DNA of 64,000 nucleotides from NCBI RefSeq assembly GCF_046105845.1, contig NZ_CP151004.1, one strand, 5' to 3'. This document shows positions 17,627 to 53,920 of the stretch, in pieces (position 1 is the stretch's first letter; each line of letters starts with the position of its first letter). This DNA is from Escherichia coli. Lineage in GTDB: Bacteria; Pseudomonadota; Gammaproteobacteria; Enterobacterales; Enterobacteriaceae. The notes beneath the pieces were generated by a model. It was not told where the DNA came from, did not search any database, and was given only the letters and a program-made list of their open reading frames with translations. The translations under genes were made by a program, and so were the position numbers.

Positions 17627-18697
17627 TTATTCGCATTTCGGGAAAGTAAAGAAAATATTAATGTATCTTATTAATTTATTATATTGTTCTTGAGTGAATG
17701 CTATTTGCACACCTTCAGGATAATATTCACCAGTAATAACCAGTTGTCCATTGCTGTGTTGTACCATTAAACCTTTTTTTTCCTTTGGATCTTCAAACTT
17801 AGAATTATCAAACGTGAAGATGTTATTTTCCTGTTTTGAGTAAGCAAAGAAATCTCGTGTATAGCTGAAACTATCATTTATTAATGGTGCTAACTTTTTG
17901 TCGGCGATATCGATAAGCTCACCACTTAATTTATTGATGTATTTCATTTGGTTCAATTTTTTCTGCGCTTGTACAATTTGCTTGTAGGTATTTTTAATTT
18001 CCTTAGAAGAATTCTTGAATTTATCATAGCGTTCCACGGAGGATGCGTATTTGTACCATTCTGTATTTTTCTCAGAATGTAGTAGCAGGTCTGTATATTT
18101 TTTTTGATCGCTGTAAAGTTGACTTTTAATACTTTCCTCACTGCTGGTTTTATAAGGTTTATCAGAGCTGTTTATTTTTGAAATGTCTTTTTCTGTCGGT
18201 GACTGGACCGTGTTGTGGATATTTTCTTTTATAACATGTTCATTGATGATGTTAATTGCAGTTTCATATTCATTTAAGTTTATTGTTCTTTGTGAAATAA
18301 ACCCTTCTTTGCTTTCGACACTCAAAATACCTTCGTTGTTTTCACCTCGGGTAAAGGTAAGGGTATAGGGTTCATAATCCGCTGCAAATTCATTTTTATA
18401 CGTTATGACATGTTCGACAAAATGTCTTATTGGTACGAAACCATAACTGTGAACGTCAATTTTTTGGGTCTTGATACTATCAATTGCATCTGAGGCTTTC
18501 GTGAAAAAAGCCAATAAATTAGCTATGCTGTCTGCTGAAGTTGATAACCCGTATCTACTTTGAGATATTTTTAGAAACTCATCGCAAAAAAACTCAAGTT
18601 TCGCGGTTTGTTGTGATTCTTTGTAAATTTCTGCTGGTTGCAATTTATTATTTTGTAAAATATTACAGCGAGATAAGTGAATAGATGTATTTGGCAT
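17627..18697 (-). CDS. Hypothetical protein, 356 aa, AT-rich, no recognisable domain
   Basis: Long intact ORF; first ATG at 18697 preceded by AAGGAATCATTT (SD); the track ORF begins at an upstream TTG. Base composition by eye is roughly 30-35% G+C against about 50% in flanking genes. No signal peptide, TM helix or catalytic motif recognised. Confidence 0.6.
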   Translation of the reverse strand: MPNTSIHLSRCNILQNNKLQPAEIYKESQQTAKLEFFCDEFLKISQSRYGLSTSADSIANLLAFFTKASDAIDSIKTQKIDVHSYGFVPIRHFVEHVITYKNEFAADYEPYTLTFTRGENNEGILSVESKEGFISQRTINLNEYETAINIINEHVIKENIHNTVQSPTEKDISKINSSDKPYKTSSEESIKSQLYSDQKKYTDLLLHSEKNTEWYKYASSVERYDKFKNSSKEIKNTYKQIVQAQKKLNQMKYINKLSGELIDIADKKLAPLINDSFSYTRDFFAYSKQENNIFTFDNSKFEDPKEKKGLMVQHSNGQLVITGEYYPEGVQIAFTQEQYNKLIRYINIFFTFPKCE

Positions 18698-19162
18698 AAA
18701 TGATTCCTTGTATTGTGAGTTAACAAGATACAATCTAATCTTTGCAAAATATATTCACTATCAAATTTAGCTCATTTTATTACGAAGACCTTTACGCATG
18801 GTAGAAAGTATCATTATTGTTAATAAATACGGTAATAAGTAACAAACAGATATTGATAACTTCCCTGAAAAGTTACTAGGTATCCCACTTGAAGATTGAG
18901 AATGGCTCCAGAGTAAACTGTGTACTGTTCGCCGGAGTGTCATTACTCTCAACGATCGGTTTTGACAGTGAGTCGGGCGCTTCATACCGGTTTCTACCTG
19001 GAGTCATTGTCACTTCTCCCAACTGGATAAATATATATCGCCAATTCACAAAGTGGGCCAAAATCAGGTGAAAACGAATTATTACGCCTGGTAAAGGCTA
19101 TAGTACAACTAAGTGTGGCGAATCAGGCAGTCTTGCATTTGTCATCAATCTCATGTCTTACA

Positions 19163-20041
19163 TCAAATTTTTCCACTCACCACGAGTTGTTCCGTACACG
19201 TTTGTAGTAAAAACAGTGGACTGCCTTCTACCGGCTTTTCTTTAGCCAGCAACGAAATCTGTCGATAGAAGGTTGGTTCGAGAGGAACGGAACACAATTC
19301 ATCTGCAATGGTTTTCAGCGTTAACTCTGGTAATAAGGCGATGCCTAATCCCTGTCGAATAAAACTGATCGCTGTATCCGGGTGATTAAATTCATATTTT
19401 ATCTGTGGGGTAATATTCTTTTCTTTAAATAGTGCCATAATGCTTAATTCATAGCGTCCTTTACTAATAATTAATGGTTCACCCATTAACTCTTCCACTG
19501 TAATAGTGCTGTTTTTTGCCAGAGCATGGTTGGGCGGTAACACTACGGTGAATTTATCCTGATAAATGGGCACGGAGTACATTCCGCTCACCGGAAAATG
19601 AACAAAACCGGCATCAATGGATTCATTCTGAAGGGAATCAATAATCGCTGTGCTATTTTCCTCAAAAGGAATAATTTTTATATTCGGATGATGAATTTCA
19701 AAGTAGCGAATCACAGCCGGTAAGATACAGGCGCAGACGCTGGGGAAACAACCAAGTCTCAGCGTTCTTTGAGGGTTCTGCTTTTCCTGCTCGGCTATCT
19801 CTTTTACTGCGTTCACTTCCCGATTAATGGCGCGCAGATGATGCATAATGCGGTGACCTGCAGAGGTCAGTTGTATAGCTTTACGGCGATCGCGTAACAG
19901 TATATTCACGCCAAGTTCTTGTTCGAGGGCAGCAATTGCCTGACTTACCGCCGACTGCGTCATGAACAATCGCTTGCTGGCTTCAGTAAAGCCACCGTAA
20001 TCCAGCACGGCGAGTAAAGAATTTATTTGGGTAAGAGTCAT
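19163..20041 (-). CDS. LysR-family transcriptional regulator
   Basis: 292 aa; N-terminal HTH LTQINSLLAVLDYGGFTEASKRLFMTQSAVSQAIAALEQELG; divergent from the adjacent MFS gene. Confidence 0.85.
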   Translation of the reverse strand: MTLTQINSLLAVLDYGGFTEASKRLFMTQSAVSQAIAALEQELGVNILLRDRRKAIQLTSAGHRIMHHLRAINREVNAVKEIAEQEKQNPQRTLRLGCFPSVCACILPAVIRYFEIHHPNIKIIPFEENSTAIIDSLQNESIDAGFVHFPVSGMYSVPIYQDKFTVVLPPNHALAKNSTITVEELMGEPLIISKGRYELSIMALFKEKNITPQIKYEFNHPDTAISFIRQGLGIALLPELTLKTIADELCSVPLEPTFYRQISLLAKEKPVEGSPLFLLQTCTEQLVVSGKI

Positions 20042-20192
20042 TAGAGTTTGCTAATCAATAATATTAAAACGATTAATTTCTCTAATAGCATGCCGCCATT
20101 TATACTTCTGTTCTGCAAAGTACATCACAATTTGACGCAACCGCAGTAACGGGAGTGTTGTCTGCGTGCGTCATCCTGACAGGCGGTAGGGT

Positions 20193-21383
20193 ATGAAAGA
20201 GAAGTTATGGACGAAGGATTTTTGGGCAATAACCATCATCAGCTTTATTATTTTCTTCGTCTTTTATGTTTTACTAACATTGTTGCCAATTTATATCTCT
20301 GACCGCTTGCATGCCTCTCCTGATAAAGCCGGTTTATTGGTGACTTTATTTTTAATTGCCGCCATTGTTATTCGCCCATTTGCCGGGCAATGGGTGGGTA
20401 AATACTCGAATAAAACTATTCTGGTGCTCTCTTCTCTGGCCTTTTTATTGGTCACAGCGTTGTATCCTTTTTGCCACTCAATTGAATCACTGCTTTTTAT
20501 TCGGGTGCTTCATGGTATTACCTTCGGGGTTATCACTACGGTAAAAGGAACGATTTCCGCGCGGCTGATCCCGGCCTCCCGACGTGGGGAGGGCATCAGT
20601 TTTTTCTCTCTGGCAATGGGGCTGGCAATGGTGGTCGGGCCGTGGATTGGCCTGAATATGGCGCGCTGGGAGGCCTTTAATATGGCTTTCTGGTTATGCA
20701 CCGGCGTGGCAGCGGTGGGGATTATTCTGTCGCTGATTATGACAGTGCCGCCGGTTATCAGCCATGCTGATGGTTCAACGCCGAAAATGGGCTTCGCCGC
20801 CATGTTCGATCGCGCGGCGTTGCCATTTGCGATGGTCACCTTTTTTATGACCTTTTCGTATGCCGGGGTTTCTGCTTTTCTGGCGCTTTATGCACGCGAA
20901 CTTAACCTGATGTCGGCAGCCAGTAATTTCCTGCTTTGCTACGCTATCTTCCTGATGATTTGCCGTACCTTTACCGGCAATGTCTGCGACAAAAAAGGAC
21001 CGAAATATGTGGTTTACCCTTGCCTTGTGTTCTTTACGGTAGGACTGGTGGTTCTCGGCTACACCCAGGGAAGCATAATGATGGTTGTTTCTGGCGCATT
21101 GATTGGTATCGGGTATGGTTCCGTGACGCCAGTTTTTCAGACGCAGATTATCAGTTCAGTGGAACCGCATAAAATCGGTGTCGCAAACTCCCTCTTCTTC
21201 AATGCGATGGATGCAGGCCTGGCGCTGGGAGCCTTTGTGATGGGGATGATGGTTGCACATACTGGCTACCGAATGATTTATCTGCTGGGTGCACTATTAG
21301 TGGTGGTGGCTGGTGGAGTCTATGCGCTGCAAATGAAGGGTAAAAGCGGTGTCGCGCTAGTAGTGGCAAAAGAAATTCATTAA
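20193..21383 (+). CDS. MFS transporter (probable LysR-controlled efflux/uptake pump)
   Basis: 396 aa with about 12 hydrophobic segments; divergent from the LysR gene. Confidence 0.8.
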   Translation: MKEKLWTKDFWAITIISFIIFFVFYVLLTLLPIYISDRLHASPDKAGLLVTLFLIAAIVIRPFAGQWVGKYSNKTILVLSSLAFLLVTALYPFCHSIESLLFIRVLHGITFGVITTVKGTISARLIPASRRGEGISFFSLAMGLAMVVGPWIGLNMARWEAFNMAFWLCTGVAAVGIILSLIMTVPPVISHADGSTPKMGFAAMFDRAALPFAMVTFFMTFSYAGVSAFLALYARELNLMSAASNFLLCYAIFLMICRTFTGNVCDKKGPKYVVYPCLVFFTVGLVVLGYTQGSIMMVVSGALIGIGYGSVTPVFQTQIISSVEPHKIGVANSLFFNAMDAGLALGAFVMGMMVAHTGYRMIYLLGALLVVVAGGVYALQMKGKSGVALVVAKEIH

Positions 21384-21463: not shown

Positions 21464-22114
21464 ATGGCAGTTTCAGCAAAGCACGACGAATTTAATCACT
21501 GGTGGGCAACAGAGGGCGACTGGGTTGAAGAGCCTAACTATCGCCGTAATGGTATGAGCGGGGTGCAATGCGTCGAGCGCAACGGCAAAAAGCTATATGT
21601 AAAGCGCATGACGCATCATCTGTTTCATTCCGTACGTTATCCGTTCGGCCGACCAACGATTGTCCGTGAGGTTGCGGTAATTAAAGAACTGGAACGGGCC
21701 GGTGTCATCGTGCCGAAGATCGTTTTTGGTGAAGCAGTGAAAATTGAGGGGGAATGGCGCGCGTTGCTGGTGACTGAAGATATGGCGGGGTTCATCAGCA
21801 TTGCTGACTGGTATGCCCAGCATGCAGTAACGCCCTATTCTGACGAAGTACGGCAAGCCATGTTGAAAGCAGTGGCGCTGGCGTTTAAGAAAATGCATAG
21901 CGTTAATCGTCAGCATGGCTGTTGCTATGTTCGCCATATCTATGTGAAAACAGAAGGTAAGGCAGAAGCTGGTTTTCTTGATCTGGAGAAAAGTCGTCGC
22001 CGCTTGCGTCGCGATAAAGCGATTAATCATGACTTCCGCCAGCTGGAAAAATATCTGGAGCCGATCCCTAAAGCGGACTGGGAGCAGGTGAAAGCGTATT
22101 ACTACGCCATGTAA
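21464..22114 (+). CDS. inaA: Kdo/WaaP-like lipopolysaccharide kinase family protein InaA
   Basis: 216 aa matching InaA by sequence and position next to yfaE-nrdBA. Confidence 0.85.
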   Translation: MAVSAKHDEFNHWWATEGDWVEEPNYRRNGMSGVQCVERNGKKLYVKRMTHHLFHSVRYPFGRPTIVREVAVIKELERAGVIVPKIVFGEAVKIEGEWRALLVTEDMAGFISIADWYAQHAVTPYSDEVRQAMLKAVALAFKKMHSVNRQHGCCYVRHIYVKTEGKAEAGFLDLEKSRRRLRRDKAINHDFRQLEKYLEPIPKADWEQVKAYYYAM

Positions 22115-22167
22115 TCGTTGTAGGCCAGATAATACGCGTAAGCGTCGTATCTGGCGCTAGTACCCGA

Positions 22168-22422
22168 TCACAACTCGATTTCAATATCGCCTTTTGCCCG
22201 GCAACAACAGGGCAAAATTTCCCCCGGCTGAATAAAGGCTAACGGTTCGGCAATCCAGTCCACCTGGCCTGCAACAAGGCGCGTGCGACAGGAACCGCAG
22301 TAACCTTCGCGGCACTGGTACTCAACCGCCACATTGTGGGATTCCAGCGCCGCCAGAAGGGAAGGGTGTTCATCCTGGCACAGCAGTTGTGTGCCAGTGA
22401 TGCGCAGGGTAACGCGAGCCAT
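22168..22422 (-). CDS. yfaE: 2Fe-2S ferredoxin YfaE (NrdB diferric-tyrosyl cofactor maintenance)
   Basis: 84 aa; cysteine motif CREGYCGSCR; start overlaps nrdB stop (TGATG). Confidence 0.9.
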   Translation of the reverse strand: MARVTLRITGTQLLCQDEHPSLLAALESHNVAVEYQCREGYCGSCRTRLVAGQVDWIAEPLAFIQPGEILPCCCRAKGDIEIEL

Positions 22423-23552
22423 CAGAGCTGGAAGTTACTCAAATCGTCGGTGTCCACTTCCGAGTCAATCTGCCCGACCAGATAAGAACTGACTTCCACT
22501 TCCTGCGGAGCAACCTGCACGTTATCAGACACCAGCCAGGTATTGATCCACGGGATCGGGTTGGAGCGTGTCTGGAACGGCAGATCCAAACCGACTGCCT
22601 GCATACGGATATTGGTGATGTATTCAACGTACTGGCAGAGAATGTCTTTATTCAGACCAATCATCGAACCGTCACGGAACAGATAATCCGCCCAGTCTTT
22701 CTCTTGCTGTGCCGCCTGGACAAACAGGTCATAGCTCTCCTGCTTACATTCTTCGGCAATTTCCGCCATCTCCGGATCATCCGCACCGCTGCGCAGCAGA
22801 TTCAGCATATGCTGAGTACCGGTCAGGTGCAGGGCTTCGTCGCGGGCAATCAGGCGAATAATTTTGGCGTTACCTTCCATCAGTTCGCGTTCTGCAAAGG
22901 CAAAGGAACAAGCAAAGCTGACGTAGAAGCGGATCGCTTCCAGCGCGTTAACGCTCATCAGGCAGAGATACAGTTTTTTCTTCAGCTCGCGCAGGCTAAC
23001 GGTTACGGTTTTACCGTTAACGGTGTGGGTACCTTCGCCCAGCAGATGCCAGTAGCTGGTCATTTCGATCAGCTCATCGTAATAGCTGGAGATCCCTTCC
23101 GCACGTTTCTGGATCTGCTCGTTGGTGACGATATCATCAAACACAACGGACGGATCGTTAACGATATTACGAATGATATGGGTATAAGAACGAGAGTGAA
23201 TGGTTTCTGAGAACGCCCAGGTTTCGACCCAGGTTTCCAGTTCAGGGATCGAGATCAGCGGCAGCAGTGCCACGTTCGGGCTGCGACCCTGAATGGAGTC
23301 CAGCAACGTCTGATATTTCAGGTTGCTGATAAAGATGTGTTTTTCGTGTTCAGGCAGTGCCTGGTAATCGATACGGTCACGAGAAACGTCAACTTCTTCC
23401 GGACGCCAGAAGAAAGAGAGCTGCTTTTCGATCAGCTTTTCGAAGATGTCATATTTTTGCTGATCGTAGCGAGCCACGTTGACCGGCTGACCAAAGAACA
23501 TCGGTTCTTTCAGCTGATCATTTTTCGTCTGTGAAAAGGTGGTATATGCCAT
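22422..23552 (-). CDS. nrdB: Ribonucleoside-diphosphate reductase 1 beta subunit
   Basis: ATG at 23552 gives 376 aa ([22 protein letters not shown]...); the track ORF extends 5' into the REP region. Confidence 0.95.
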
Positions 23553-23575
23553 GAATGTGTCCTGTTGGGAGTTTA

Positions 23576-23690
23576 ATGCCGGATAAGGCATTTTACGCCG
23601 CATCCTGTGCCTGATGCGACGCTGGCGCGTCTTATCAGGCCTACAAATCCGAGCCGTAGGCCAGATAAGGCGTTCACGCCGCATCCGGCA
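23576..23690. repeat. REP/BIME cluster in the nrdA-nrdB intergenic region
   Basis: Inverted GCCGGATAAGGCxxxxACGCCGCATCCGGC-type units (REP consensus), at least two copies. Confidence 0.75.
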
Positions 23691-23698
23691 TCTCAAAA

Positions 23699-47564: not shown

Positions 47565-47605
47565 GCTATGCAGAAAATTGCGCACTGTGCAAATTTCTGC
47601 ATAGC
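47565..47605. promoter_or_regulatory. AtoC upstream activating sequence (41-bp palindrome)
   Basis: GCTATGCAGAAAATTGCGCACTGTGCAAATTTCTGCATAGC, a long inverted repeat about 100 nt upstream of the sigma-54 promoter. Confidence 0.7.
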
Positions 47606-50991: not shown

Positions 50992-53841
50992 TTGAAATAC
51001 CTTGCTTCTTTTCGTACAACCCTGAAAGCCTCGCGCTACATGTTCAGAGCATTGGCGTTAGTGCTCTGGCTGTTGATTGCTTTTTCATCCGTTTTTTACA
51101 TCGTTAATGCGTTACATCAGCGAGAATCGGAAATTCGTCAGGAATTTAATCTGAGTTCCGATCAGGCTCAGCGCTTTATTCAACGTACCTCTGATGTGAT
51201 GAAAGAGCTGAAGTACATCGCTGAAAATCGCTTATCGGCAGAAAACGGTGTGCTTTCCCCGCGTGGACGAGAAACGCAGGCGGATGTGCCTGCGTTTGAA
51301 CCGCTGTTTGCCGACTCCGATTGTTCCGCAATGAGTAACACCTGGCGAGGCTCTCTGGAGTCATTGGCGTGGTTTATGCGCTACTGGCGCGATAATTTCT
51401 CTGCGGCTTACGATCTCAACCGGGTATTTTTAATCGGCAGCGATAACCTCTGCATGGCCAATTTCGGTCTGCGTGATATGCCAGTGGAACGCGATACCGC
51501 GTTGAAAGCGTTGCATGAACGCATTAATAAATATCGAAATGCACCACAAGATGATAGTGGCAGTAACCTCTACTGGATCAGCGAAGGTCCGCGCCCTGGC
51601 GTCGGGTATTTTTACGCGTTGACGCCAGTTTATCTGGCGAACCGGTTGCAGGCGCTTTTGGGTGTCGAGCAGACTATCCGGATGGAGAATTTTTTCTTAC
51701 CTGGTACGTTGCCGATGGGGGTTACCATTCTTGATGAAAATGGTCATACCCTGATTTCGCTTACCGGACCAGAAAGCAAAATTAAGGGCGATCCTCGCTG
51801 GATGCAGGAACGCTCCTGGTTTGGCTATACGGAAGGTTTCCGGGAGCTGGTGCTGAAGAAAAATCTGCCTCCCTCATCGCTAAGCATCGTTTATTCGGTG
51901 CCGGTTGATAAGGTGCTGGAACGCATTCGCATGTTGATCCTTAACGCAATTTTGCTGAATGTGCTTGCCGGAGCTGCATTGTTTACTCTCGCGCGGATGT
52001 ACGAGCGGCGTATTTTCATTCCGGCGGAAAGCGACGCCTTGCGACTGGAAGAACATGAGCAGTTTAATCGCAAGATTGTCGCCTCCGCGCCAGTGGGTAT
52101 CTGCATTTTGCGTACCGCTGATGGCGTCAATATTTTAAGTAACGAACTGGCGCATACCTATCTCAATATGCTTACGCATGAGGACCGCCAACGGCTGACA
52201 CAAATTATCTGTGGGCAGCAGGTCAATTTTGTTGATGTCCTGACCAGTAACAATACCAATCTGCAAATCAGCTTCGTCCATTCGCGCTATCGTAATGAAA
52301 ACGTGGCCATTTGTGTGCTGGTGGATGTTTCTTCGCGCGTGAAGATGGAAGAGTCGTTGCAGGAGATGGCACAAGCAGCGGAACAGGCGAGCCAGTCAAA
52401 ATCGATGTTCCTTGCCACCGTCAGTCATGAGCTGCGAACGCCGCTGTATGGCATTATCGGTAACCTGGATCTGTTGCAAACCAAAGAGTTACCGAAAGGC
52501 GTCGATCGTCTGGTGACGGCAATGAACAACTCTTCCAGCCTGTTGTTGAAAATTATCAGCGATATTCTCGACTTCTCGAAGATTGAATCGGAACAGTTGA
52601 AGATCGAACCACGTGAGTTTTCACCGCGTGAAGTGATGAACCACATCACCGCCAACTATTTGCCGCTGGTGGTACGCAAGCAGCTAGGCTTGTACTGCTT
52701 TATTGAACCGGATGTGCCAGTGGCCTTAAATGGCGACCCAATGCGTTTACAGCAGGTCATCTCCAACCTGTTGAGTAACGCCATAAAATTCACCGATACC
52801 GGCTGTATAGTTCTGCATGTTCGCGCTGATGGCGATTATCTCTCTATCCGCGTTCGCGATACCGGCGTGGGTATTCCAGCGAAAGAAGTGGTGCGCTTGT
52901 TTGATCCCTTCTTCCAGGTCGGAACGGGCGTACAGCGTAACTTCCAGGGGACCGGTCTGGGGCTGGCGATTTGTGAAAAACTGATCAGCATGATGGACGG
53001 CGACATCTCGGTAGATTCAGAACCGGGAATGGGCAGCCAGTTTACCGTGCGTATTCCGTTGTACGGCGCTCAGTACCCGCAGAAAAAAGGCGTGGAAGGG
53101 TTGAGTGGTAAACGCTGCTGGCTGGCGGTCCGCAATGCGTCGCTCTGTCAGTTCCTGGAAACCAGTTTGCAGCGCAGCGGCATCGTCGTTACAACATACG
53201 AAGGGCAGGAACCGACTCCCGAAGATGTGTTAATCACTGACGAGGTAGTGAACAAAAAATGGCAGGGTAGAGCGGTAGTGACCTTCTGTCGTCGCCATAT
53301 TGGTATTCCGCTGGAGAAAGCGCCAGGGGAGTGGGTACACAGTGTGGCTGCCCCGCATGAGCTACCGGCATTGTTGGCGCGTATTTATTTGATCGAGATG
53401 GAGAGCGACGATCCTGCTAACGCTCTGCCGTCGACGGACAAAGCGGTCAGCGATAACGACGATATGATGATTCTGGTCGTGGATGATCATCCGATTAACC
53501 GGCGTCTTCTGGCAGATCAGTTGGGATCGTTGGGCTATCAATGTAAAACCGCGAATGATGGCGTCGATGCGCTTAATGTACTTAGCAAGAATCATATTGA
53601 TATCGTGCTTAGCGACGTCAACATGCCAAATATGGATGGTTACCGCTTGACGCAACGCATTCGTCAGTTGGGACTGACGTTGCCGGTAATCGGAGTAACT
53701 GCTAATGCGTTGGCTGAAGAGAAGCAGCGGTGTCTGGAGTCCGGTATGGACAGCTGCCTGTCGAAGCCGGTAACGCTGGATGTGATAAAACAGACGCTAA
53801 CGGTATATGCCGAGAGGGTCAGGAAATCGCGGGATTCGTAG
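50992..53841 (+). CDS. rcsC: Hybrid sensor histidine kinase of the Rcs phosphorelay
   Basis: 949 aa; H-box SHELRTPL, ATPase domain, C-terminal receiver domain. Confidence 0.95.
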   Translation: MKYLASFRTTLKASRYMFRALALVLWLLIAFSSVFYIVNALHQRESEIRQEFNLSSDQAQRFIQRTSDVMKELKYIAENRLSAENGVLSPRGRETQADVPAFEPLFADSDCSAMSNTWRGSLESLAWFMRYWRDNFSAAYDLNRVFLIGSDNLCMANFGLRDMPVERDTALKALHERINKYRNAPQDDSGSNLYWISEGPRPGVGYFYALTPVYLANRLQALLGVEQTIRMENFFLPGTLPMGVTILDENGHTLISLTGPESKIKGDPRWMQERSWFGYTEGFRELVLKKNLPPSSLSIVYSVPVDKVLERIRMLILNAILLNVLAGAALFTLARMYERRIFIPAESDALRLEEHEQFNRKIVASAPVGICILRTADGVNILSNELAHTYLNMLTHEDRQRLTQIICGQQVNFVDVLTSNNTNLQISFVHSRYRNENVAICVLVDVSSRVKMEESLQEMAQAAEQASQSKSMFLATVSHELRTPLYGIIGNLDLLQTKELPKGVDRLVTAMNNSSSLLLKIISDILDFSKIESEQLKIEPREFSPREVMNHITANYLPLVVRKQLGLYCFIEPDVPVALNGDPMRLQQVISNLLSNAIKFTDTGCIVLHVRADGDYLSIRVRDTGVGIPAKEVVRLFDPFFQVGTGVQRNFQGTGLGLAICEKLISMMDGDISVDSEPGMGSQFTVRIPLYGAQYPQKKGVEGLSGKRCWLAVRNASLCQFLETSLQRSGIVVTTYEGQEPTPEDVLITDEVVNKKWQGRAVVTFCRRHIGIPLEKAPGEWVHSVAAPHELPALLARIYLIEMESDDPANALPSTDKAVSDNDDMMILVVDDHPINRRLLADQLGSLGYQCKTANDGVDALNVLSKNHIDIVLSDVNMPNMDGYRLTQRIRQLGLTLPVIGVTANALAEEKQRCLESGMDSCLSKPVTLDVIKQTLTVYAERVRKSRDS

Positions 53842-53842
53842 G

Positions 53843-53920
53843 ACGGATAAGGCGTTTACGCCGCATCTGGCATTCAGTGCAAATGCCAGATGCGACGCTG
53901 ACGCGTCTTATCTGGCCTAC
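53843..53920. repeat. REP element pair downstream of rcsC
   Basis: GGATAAGGCGTTTACGCCGCATCTGGC and inverted partner. Confidence 0.75.

Follow-up and report, generated by a model that had tools for sequence, protein, structure and literature searches.

REP units of the y/z2 type at four intergenic sites of an Escherichia coli chromosome segment and their variation among strains

Results

Genomic context of the window

The stretch of DNA analysed here (64,000 nucleotides; hereinafter designated the window) is a segment of the Escherichia coli chromosome in reverse K-12 orientation, on which the open reading frame (ORF) map, the matches to complete genomes and the MG1655 annotation agree. Its genes run in the order arnB–ais–nudI–yfaZYX–rhm–glpCBA/glpTQ–inaA–yfaE–nrdB–nrdA–yfaL–ubiG–gyrA, followed by yfaATSQP–atoBEADCS–rcsC–rcsB–rcsD–micF–ompC–ftp–ada–alkB–yojI. 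The features under study are REP units in four of the intergenic spacers (hereinafter designated sites 1 to 4): nrdA-nrdB (site 1), yfaL-ubiG (site 2), rcsC-rcsB (site 3) and inaA-yfaE (site 4). The gene contexts given in a first-pass annotation of the window hold, with nrdA→nrdB in tandem and both yfaL/ubiG and rcsC/rcsB convergent. K-12 itself is ruled out as the source of the window: across positions 20000-44000 the best match among 5,426 complete RefSeq E. coli genomes reaches only 98.4% identity over 24 kb. Within this region the nearest strain differs from one sub-region to another (PCN033, 19KM1831, MEI003 or 118UI), indicating either a poorly represented source lineage or a recombination mosaic.

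Several neighbouring features differ from the K-12 annotation or deserve mention in their own right. The glpQ to inaA interval (17627-21383) encodes a 368-aa ORF without a Pfam match, which the annotation of strain 118UI gives as a frameshifted hypothetical, together with an intact LysR-family regulator and an MFS transporter, while K-12 has only a yfaH pseudogene remnant in this interval. The alpha-2-macroglobulin family gene yfaS (36451-41070, plus strand) is an intact ORF of 1539 aa and is a pseudogene in the K-12 MG1655 annotation. The MicF antisense sRNA lies upstream of ompC at 57578-57671 on the minus strand, as expected (Rfam RF00033, 116.8 bits). The atoC-atoD intergenic region contains a near-perfect 20+20-nt inverted repeat at 47565-47605, GCTATGCAGAAAATTGCGCA / TGTGCAAATTTCTGCATAGC, which we presume to be the AtoC operator upstream of atoDAEB.

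Six full-length REP units and two degenerate ones

A blastn-short scan of the whole window used consensus strings for the y, z2 and z1 units whose validation is indirect only, through matches in K-12 and an Rfam model. On alignment to the REP consensus, the point on which the assignment had been staked beforehand, exactly six full-length units emerge, 91-100% identical over 35-38 nt and scoring 46-74 bits, compared with a top score of 28.2 bits among 20 randomised versions of the window (first-order Markov). Searching for the pattern GCCTGATGCGACGC with at most two mismatches gives six matches against 0.69 expected. The full units fall in the nrdA-nrdB, yfaL-ubiG and rcsC-rcsB spacers, the three places to which the first-pass annotation had assigned REPs, with boundaries that prove right to within a few bases. 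Its list is nevertheless one site short, having missed the inaA/yfaE spacer (22119-22155). Besides the six full units, the scan yields two degenerate ones, a y-like unit at 23574-23608 on the minus strand in site 1 and the solitary z2-like unit at 22119-22155, also on the minus strand, that makes up site 4.

Applied to the homologous 64 kb of MG1655, the same scan returns REPs at these loci only, with the K-12 units typed identically, which validates both the consensus strings and the list of sites; the RefSeq MG1655 record lists no repeat_region or REP features. Queries around the sites reflect the dispersed nature of these elements: a 651-bp query containing site 1 finds a median of 22 places per E. 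coli genome and a 651-bp query containing site 2 a median of 13, and the query containing the degenerate site 4 finds one place per genome only. The Rfam RF02564 naRNA4 model, which was built from the y/z2 pairs of REP325, matches every site, with site 3 (53841-53917, plus strand) at 73.8 bits exceeding the gathering score of 59.5 and sites 1, 2 and 4 (53.7, 45.9 and 28.9 bits, respectively) remaining under it.

REP had also been described as the only repeat family in the window, a statement that holds for interspersed repeats, among which no other family was found. A search of the whole window for direct and inverted repeats produced no convincing second family, and a tandem-repeat finder run over the same sequence gave only short, low-scoring arrays, none of them meaningful. 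Neither the ERIC core consensus nor a Box-C-like palindrome has a match in the window.

Unit architecture identifies BIME-2-type clusters at three sites

By definition, a REP is an imperfect palindrome of 30-40 nt whose stem has a conserved mismatch and whose foot carries a GTAG/CTAC tetranucleotide (PMC3333891). In seven of the eight units in the window, a lower stem (7-8 bp) and an upper stem (4-5 bp) are separated by a 1x1 mismatch and capped by a loop of 3-5 nt, mostly a tetraloop, with energies for these seven of -11.8 to -21.4 kcal/mol. CCTAC follows the stem in seven of the eight, the exception being the degenerate unit at 23574-23608, which ends in GGCATTA. REPs are extragenic, typically in 3' UTRs. 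Here every unit lies between annotated genes, the one exception being the y unit of site 3, 4 nt of which fall within the final codon and stop of rcsC. Folded as whole clusters, the RNAs of the transcribed strands reach -51 to -68 kcal/mol, with z-scores of -4.8 to -8.7.

BIME-2 elements consist of inverted y and z2 pairs with short linkers, named S between tails and s, l or r between heads (PMC3333891). The units in the window likewise alternate in inverse orientation, as y'(-) z2(+) y(-) at site 1, y(+) z2(-) at site 2 and y(-) z2(+) at site 3. The tail-to-tail linkers are 11 nt each, at 30495-30505 in site 2 and at 23645-23655 in site 1, where the z2/y linker reads AAATCCGAGCC and is as short as expected in BIME-2 (PMC3333891). 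Head to head, the units are ~2 nt apart at site 1 and 11 nt apart at site 3 (53873-53883). Site 4 is a solitary unit and is thus not a BIME. Taken jointly, we are highly confident that the four sites are y/z2 REPs, of BIME-2 type at three of the four, with proposed action at both the RNA level and the DNA level.

The tandem nrdA-nrdB site

The nrdA→nrdB pair is transcribed from the minus strand, with the nrdB ATG at 23552-23550 and a spacer of 146 bp (23553-23698) that holds three REP units in the window. The first hairpin on the nrdAB mRNA is the y unit at 23656-23690 on the minus strand (34/35 identity, 97%; 61.9 bits; -19.1 kcal/mol), located 8-9 nt past the nrdA TGA (23701-23699). Across the linker lies the z2 unit, at 23608-23644 on the plus strand, which is identical to the consensus at 37/37 positions (73.8 bits) and folds at -21.4 kcal/mol (z = -5.2). 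The third unit, the degenerate y-like REP at 23574-23608 on the minus strand, is 89% identical to the y consensus over 28 nt, folds at -11.8 kcal/mol without a CTAC foot and adjoins the nrdB ribosome-binding region. In the alignment to the Rfam naRNA4 model it takes the place of the first hairpin, and it is also found in the K-12, PCN033 and O55:H7 alleles.

Two ORFs overlap this spacer. The ORF list contains a 424-aa frame (22422-23696, minus strand) that runs from nrdB through the entire REP spacer, while the true nrdB comprises 376 aa from 23552; with no stop in frame anywhere in the REP cluster, the frame is spuriously extended, which makes the spacer a trap for automated gene callers. On the opposite strand, an 11-codon ORF (23551-23586, plus strand) homologous to the K-12 small protein YoaM lies antisense across the nrdB start codon. 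Its final three codons and TAA stop lie inside the degenerate REP unit, so that the C-terminus of the YoaM-like product is REP-derived.

The convergent yfaL-ubiG, rcsC-rcsB and inaA-yfaE sites

The spacer between the convergent genes yfaL (plus strand) and ubiG (minus strand) holds two REP units and a 10-nt remnant. The y unit at 30460-30494 on the plus strand (94% over 35 nt, 54.0 bits; -19.1 kcal/mol) lies 21-22 nt past the yfaL TAA (30436-30438), and the z2 unit at 30506-30543 on the minus strand, with a loop one base longer (95% over 38 nt, 52.0 bits; -21.3 kcal/mol), starts 35 nt past the ubiG TGA (30581-30579). Allele comparison with MFDpir, 2013C-3342 and 7/2 identifies the sequence TGCCGGATGA at 30553-30562 on the plus strand as a truncated REP head remnant, which belongs to a spacer 13 nt longer than that of K-12-type alleles (140 vs 127 bp).

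Two REP units occupy the 85-bp spacer between rcsC (plus strand) and rcsB (minus strand), also convergent. The lower stem of the y unit at 53838-53872 on the minus strand (91% over 35 nt, 46.1 bits) is weakened, and the unit folds alone at only -9.1 kcal/mol, but paired with the neighbouring z2 unit it forms a structure of -51 kcal/mol. From the GTAG foot of the y unit (53838-53842), rcsC takes the last position of its final Ser codon and its TAG stop (53839-53841), and the unit begins 5 nt to the left of the boundary drawn previously (53843); K-12 has the same overlap between REP foot and rcsC stop. The z2 unit at 53884-53920 on the plus strand (92% over 37 nt, 50.1 bits; -21.4 kcal/mol) is met on the minus-strand transcript 6 nt past the rcsB TAA (53929-53927).

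The fourth site is a single REP between the stops of the convergent genes inaA (22112-22114) and yfaE (22170-22168). This solitary, degenerate z2-like unit (22119-22155, minus strand) is 92% complementary over 37 nt to the z2 unit of site 3, and its hairpin folds at -18.4 kcal/mol (z = -6.4).

REP copy number varies among strains at three of the four sites

Each site was surveyed in a systematic sample of 39 chromosomal rows evenly spaced down the ranking of all matches, and representative alleles were dissected. The cross-strain comparison bears out the proposal of the first-pass annotation that REP copy number is strain-variable at the three sites it had named. At site 4 no length variation was seen, the aligned stretch measuring 681 bases in all 39 chromosomal genomes sampled.

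The nrdA-nrdB spacer occurs in five classes in the sample. The three-REP form of the window and PCN033 (146/145 bp) accounts for ~20% of the sample, the five-REP forms of K-12 (233 bp) and O55:H7/O157:H7 (226 bp) together for ~44%, a 189-bp form with four REPs of z1-like/y type (SC477) for ~5%, and an 88-bp form with zero REPs (RIVM_C019217) for ~31%. In agreement with this last share, 1,695 of 5,425 genomes have less than 80% query coverage at nrdA-nrdB. In place of REPs, this 88-bp allele has a CCCTCTCCC…GGGAGAGGG palindrome, dispersed in its own right at a median of 14 places per genome, that we take to be probably Box C. In the nrdB-nrdA spacer of RIVM_C019217 (454-541 of the extracted locus) the palindrome reads CCCCTCACCCTAACCCTCTCCCGCAAGGGGAGAGGGGACGG, a sequence not present in the window. 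Different lineages thus hold different repeat families in the nrdA-nrdB spacer.

Most genomes carry the y/z2 pair at yfaL-ubiG, with a REP count of 1 or 2, and the locus is ~80 bp shorter in ~13% of those sampled; the one short allele dissected, that of strain 7/2, contains a single atypical REP-like palindrome. With REPs lacking from nrdA-nrdB in ~31% of genomes and the REP pair from yfaL-ubiG in ~13% of those sampled, the units are dispensable at both sites. At rcsC-rcsB the window has two REPs and K-12 has two pairs with a 31-nt AT-rich linker between them, in a spacer of 199 bp. This linker of the K-12-type, four-REP allele is absent from the window and present as a single copy in 4,437 of 5,426 genomes (81.8%), which makes the allele of the window the minority form.

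The dissected alleles differ by whole BIME units, with breakpoints within shared REP sequence. Such steps fit unequal recombination or slippage between tandem units, as judged from the allele sequences, and would also fit RAYT-mediated exchange, which has been shown in vitro (PMC3333891). REP turnover is fast, and the nrdA-nrdB allele can change between very close relatives: across inaA-yfaE the window and strain 118UI share 99.9% identity, but 118UI carries the five-REP nrdAB spacer of 233 bp.

REP units lie close to stop codons and are not followed by T-runs

The gap between stop codon and REP is at most 15 nt at five of the seven gene ends (nrdA, 8-9 nt; rcsC, 0; rcsB, 6; inaA, 5-6; yfaE, 11-12) and exceeds this distance at the other two (yfaL, 21-22 nt; ubiG, 35 nt). 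When a REP lies less than 16 nt away from a stop codon, terminating ribosomes stall and the upstream gene yields less product (PMC12306157), and nrdAB is, according to the description given in that source, a transcript for which stop-proximal REP stalling has been reported (Liang, Rudd & Deutscher 2015, Mol Cell 58:431, as described in PMC12306157). The first-pass annotation, which read the clusters as mRNA stabilisers or terminators, had omitted this translational effect. Its stabiliser reading is plausible in light of the published evidence for stabilisers and attenuators; intrinsic termination is not supported, as the hairpins are not followed by T-runs. A terminator scan found no hairpin with a subsequent T-run at any of the four sites on either strand, and none of them is therefore a canonical intrinsic terminator. 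The nrdA-nrdB spacer has no match to a sigma-70-like promoter.

Discussion

Proposed roles of the REP clusters

We propose that the REPs of the four sites would act on the transcripts that contain them and also on the DNA. REPs are non-autonomous palindromic repeats, probably spread and reshuffled by a REP-associated tyrosine transposase, with a copy number that may expand or contract through recombination of neighbouring units. Given their positions in 3' UTRs or in an intercistronic spacer, the four sites are expected to be transcribed and to fold into very stable hairpins. By analogy with the published cases, these hairpins may block 3'→5' exonucleases and stabilise the upstream message, and may cause partial Rho-dependent attenuation of read-through, either into nrdB or into the antisense of a convergent neighbour. 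A hairpin no more than 15 nt past the stop would be predicted to stall the terminating ribosome, resulting in less NrdA, RcsC, RcsB, InaA and YfaE. At the DNA level, the y/z2 clusters may serve as preferred DNA gyrase cleavage sites.

We infer the expression effects at all four sites from the literature, where REPs partially terminate transcription in a Rho-dependent way and block 3'→5' decay, locally and depending on context (bioRxiv 10.64898/2026.03.23.713779). Tandem gene pairs with a REP show upstream-biased expression, and convergent pairs with a REP show elevated expression of both genes (bioRxiv 10.64898/2026.03.23.713779).

Alternative explanations

The hairpins are G+C-rich and very stable and directly follow convergent gene ends, a common position for bidirectional terminators, and REPs are found in nearly 40% of predicted bidirectional terminators between convergent genes (bioRxiv 10.64898/2026.03.23.713779), all of which would suit classical intrinsic (Rho-independent) terminators ending the nrdA, yfaL, ubiG, rcsC and rcsB transcripts. 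The missing T-runs at every site and on both strands nonetheless make such a role very improbable, and most REPs lack a poly-U tract, with few coincidental exceptions (bioRxiv 10.64898/2026.03.23.713779). A full stop between nrdA and nrdB is unlikely in any case, since the genes are in tandem and their spacer offers no sigma-70-like promoter match. We give equally little credence to the idea that the y/z2 pairs encode naRNA4-like nucleoid-associated RNAs that bridge REP cruciforms with HU and thereby compact the chromosome. This idea derives from the original HU/naRNA4 compaction model (PMC4550694) and could draw on the naRNA4 match of site 3, which exceeds the gathering score, and on the matches of sites 1 and 2; the latter two, however, fall below that score, and the match is a consequence of the y/z2 REP pair on which the model was built. 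Moreover, deletion or overexpression of REP325 leaves nucleoid volume unchanged, and neither long-range REP-REP contacts nor a stable complex of HU, cruciform DNA and naRNA4 was detected (bioRxiv 10.64898/2026.03.23.713779). The group behind this 2026 preprint includes an author of the original naRNA4 work, and the compaction role is disputed and not reproduced (bioRxiv 10.64898/2026.03.23.713779).

Two further readings bear on the DNA itself. A main role at the DNA level, with the BIME-2 clusters as strong gyrase sites that need no transcription and release supercoils between genes that are convergent or highly transcribed, strikes us as rather unlikely, although every cluster has the y/z2 composition and positive supercoils accumulate between convergent genes, the setting of three of the four sites. 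Topo-seq places a disproportionate share of gyrase cleavage sites in part of the BIME-2 elements, chiefly within y units, and these sites increase under a transcription block (PMC6379681); by the same account, only a subset of BIME-2 is cleaved (PMC6379681), and the clusters here are small (2-3 units), with gyrase binding that is putative. Somewhat better placed, if still improbable, is the reading in which the REPs are selfish or neutral DNA without a selected function at these sites, persisting only because insertion past stop codons harms little. The presence/absence and copy-number polymorphism at three sites, the unrelated dispersed palindrome that replaces the REPs at nrdA-nrdB in ~31% of genomes and the signs of decay in the degenerate units (23574-23608 and 22119-22155) and the truncated remnant (30553-30562) would all be in keeping with it, as would the RAYT-mediated mobility proposed in the literature. 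Set against this are the occupation of the same intergenic sites in the window, in K-12 and in most sampled genomes, the stable hairpin retained by the degenerate inaA-yfaE unit within a stretch of constant length in 39/39 genomes, and published genome-wide and single-locus data that show expression effects. A selfish or neutral origin can be compatible with the explanation that we favour, y/z2 REPs acting on RNA and DNA, the one concerning where the units come from and the other what follows from their presence.

Implications

REP/BIME elements have been known since the 1980s, the same loci carry REPs in K-12, and inter-strain variation in REP copy number is already documented; the clusters described here are known and ordinary in kind, and they carry little weight as a discovery and are useful as annotation. 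They explain the spurious ORF at nrdA-nrdB and the Rfam naRNA4 match at rcsC-rcsB, and they flag five gene ends whose stop codon has a REP near enough to influence the termination of translation. The natural variants, with 0/3/4/5 REPs at nrdAB and 2/4 at rcsC-rcsB, could be used for testing models of REP function. The only mildly novel angle is the allelic series at nrdA-nrdB. Since nrdA down-regulation by a stop-proximal REP has been published for this very cluster, the alleles could set different NrdA:NrdB ratios, and one may speculate, at fairly long odds, that the spacer is a natural allelic series (0/3/4/5 REPs) that sets these ratios, or ribonucleotide reductase levels, differently by lineage. 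If true, the REP alleles of nrdA-nrdB would constitute a non-coding 'dial' on dNTP supply.

Comparison with known REP systems

The closest relative of site 1 is the nrdAB REP cluster of K-12, which lies at the same locus and has the same first y unit 8-9 nt past the nrdA stop. The K-12 spacer contains five units in 233 bp and that of the window three units in 146 bp, and the two align end to end save for one BIME unit that is missing in the window. The REP325 cluster in the yjdM-yjdN spacer, the best-studied dual terminator/stabiliser, shares the y/z2 pair architecture and lies in a tandem gene pair, a context like that of nrdA-nrdB; it differs in having 12 units, compared with 2-3 at the sites described here, and the loci are different.

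BIME-1/RIP elements belong to the same REP superfamily and are likewise inverted pairs, but BIME-1 combines y with z1 around a long L linker with an IHF site. A BIME-1/RIP (IHF) reading is ruled out for the window, which has no full z1 unit and no long L linker. The 31-nt linker of the K-12 rcsC-rcsB allele, being single-copy per genome, is not a shared L motif at the blastn level.

By contrast, the clusters conform to BIME-2 as characterised by Bachellier, Gilson and Hofnung (via Ton-Hoang et al. 2012, PMC3333891) in their imperfect palindromes of 35-38 nt, y/z2 composition, alternating orientation, short linkers and variable tandem copies. Despite the small size of the clusters (2-3 units), one unit without a CTAC foot and one overlapping the rcsC stop, there is no essential difference between BIME-2 and the sites described here.
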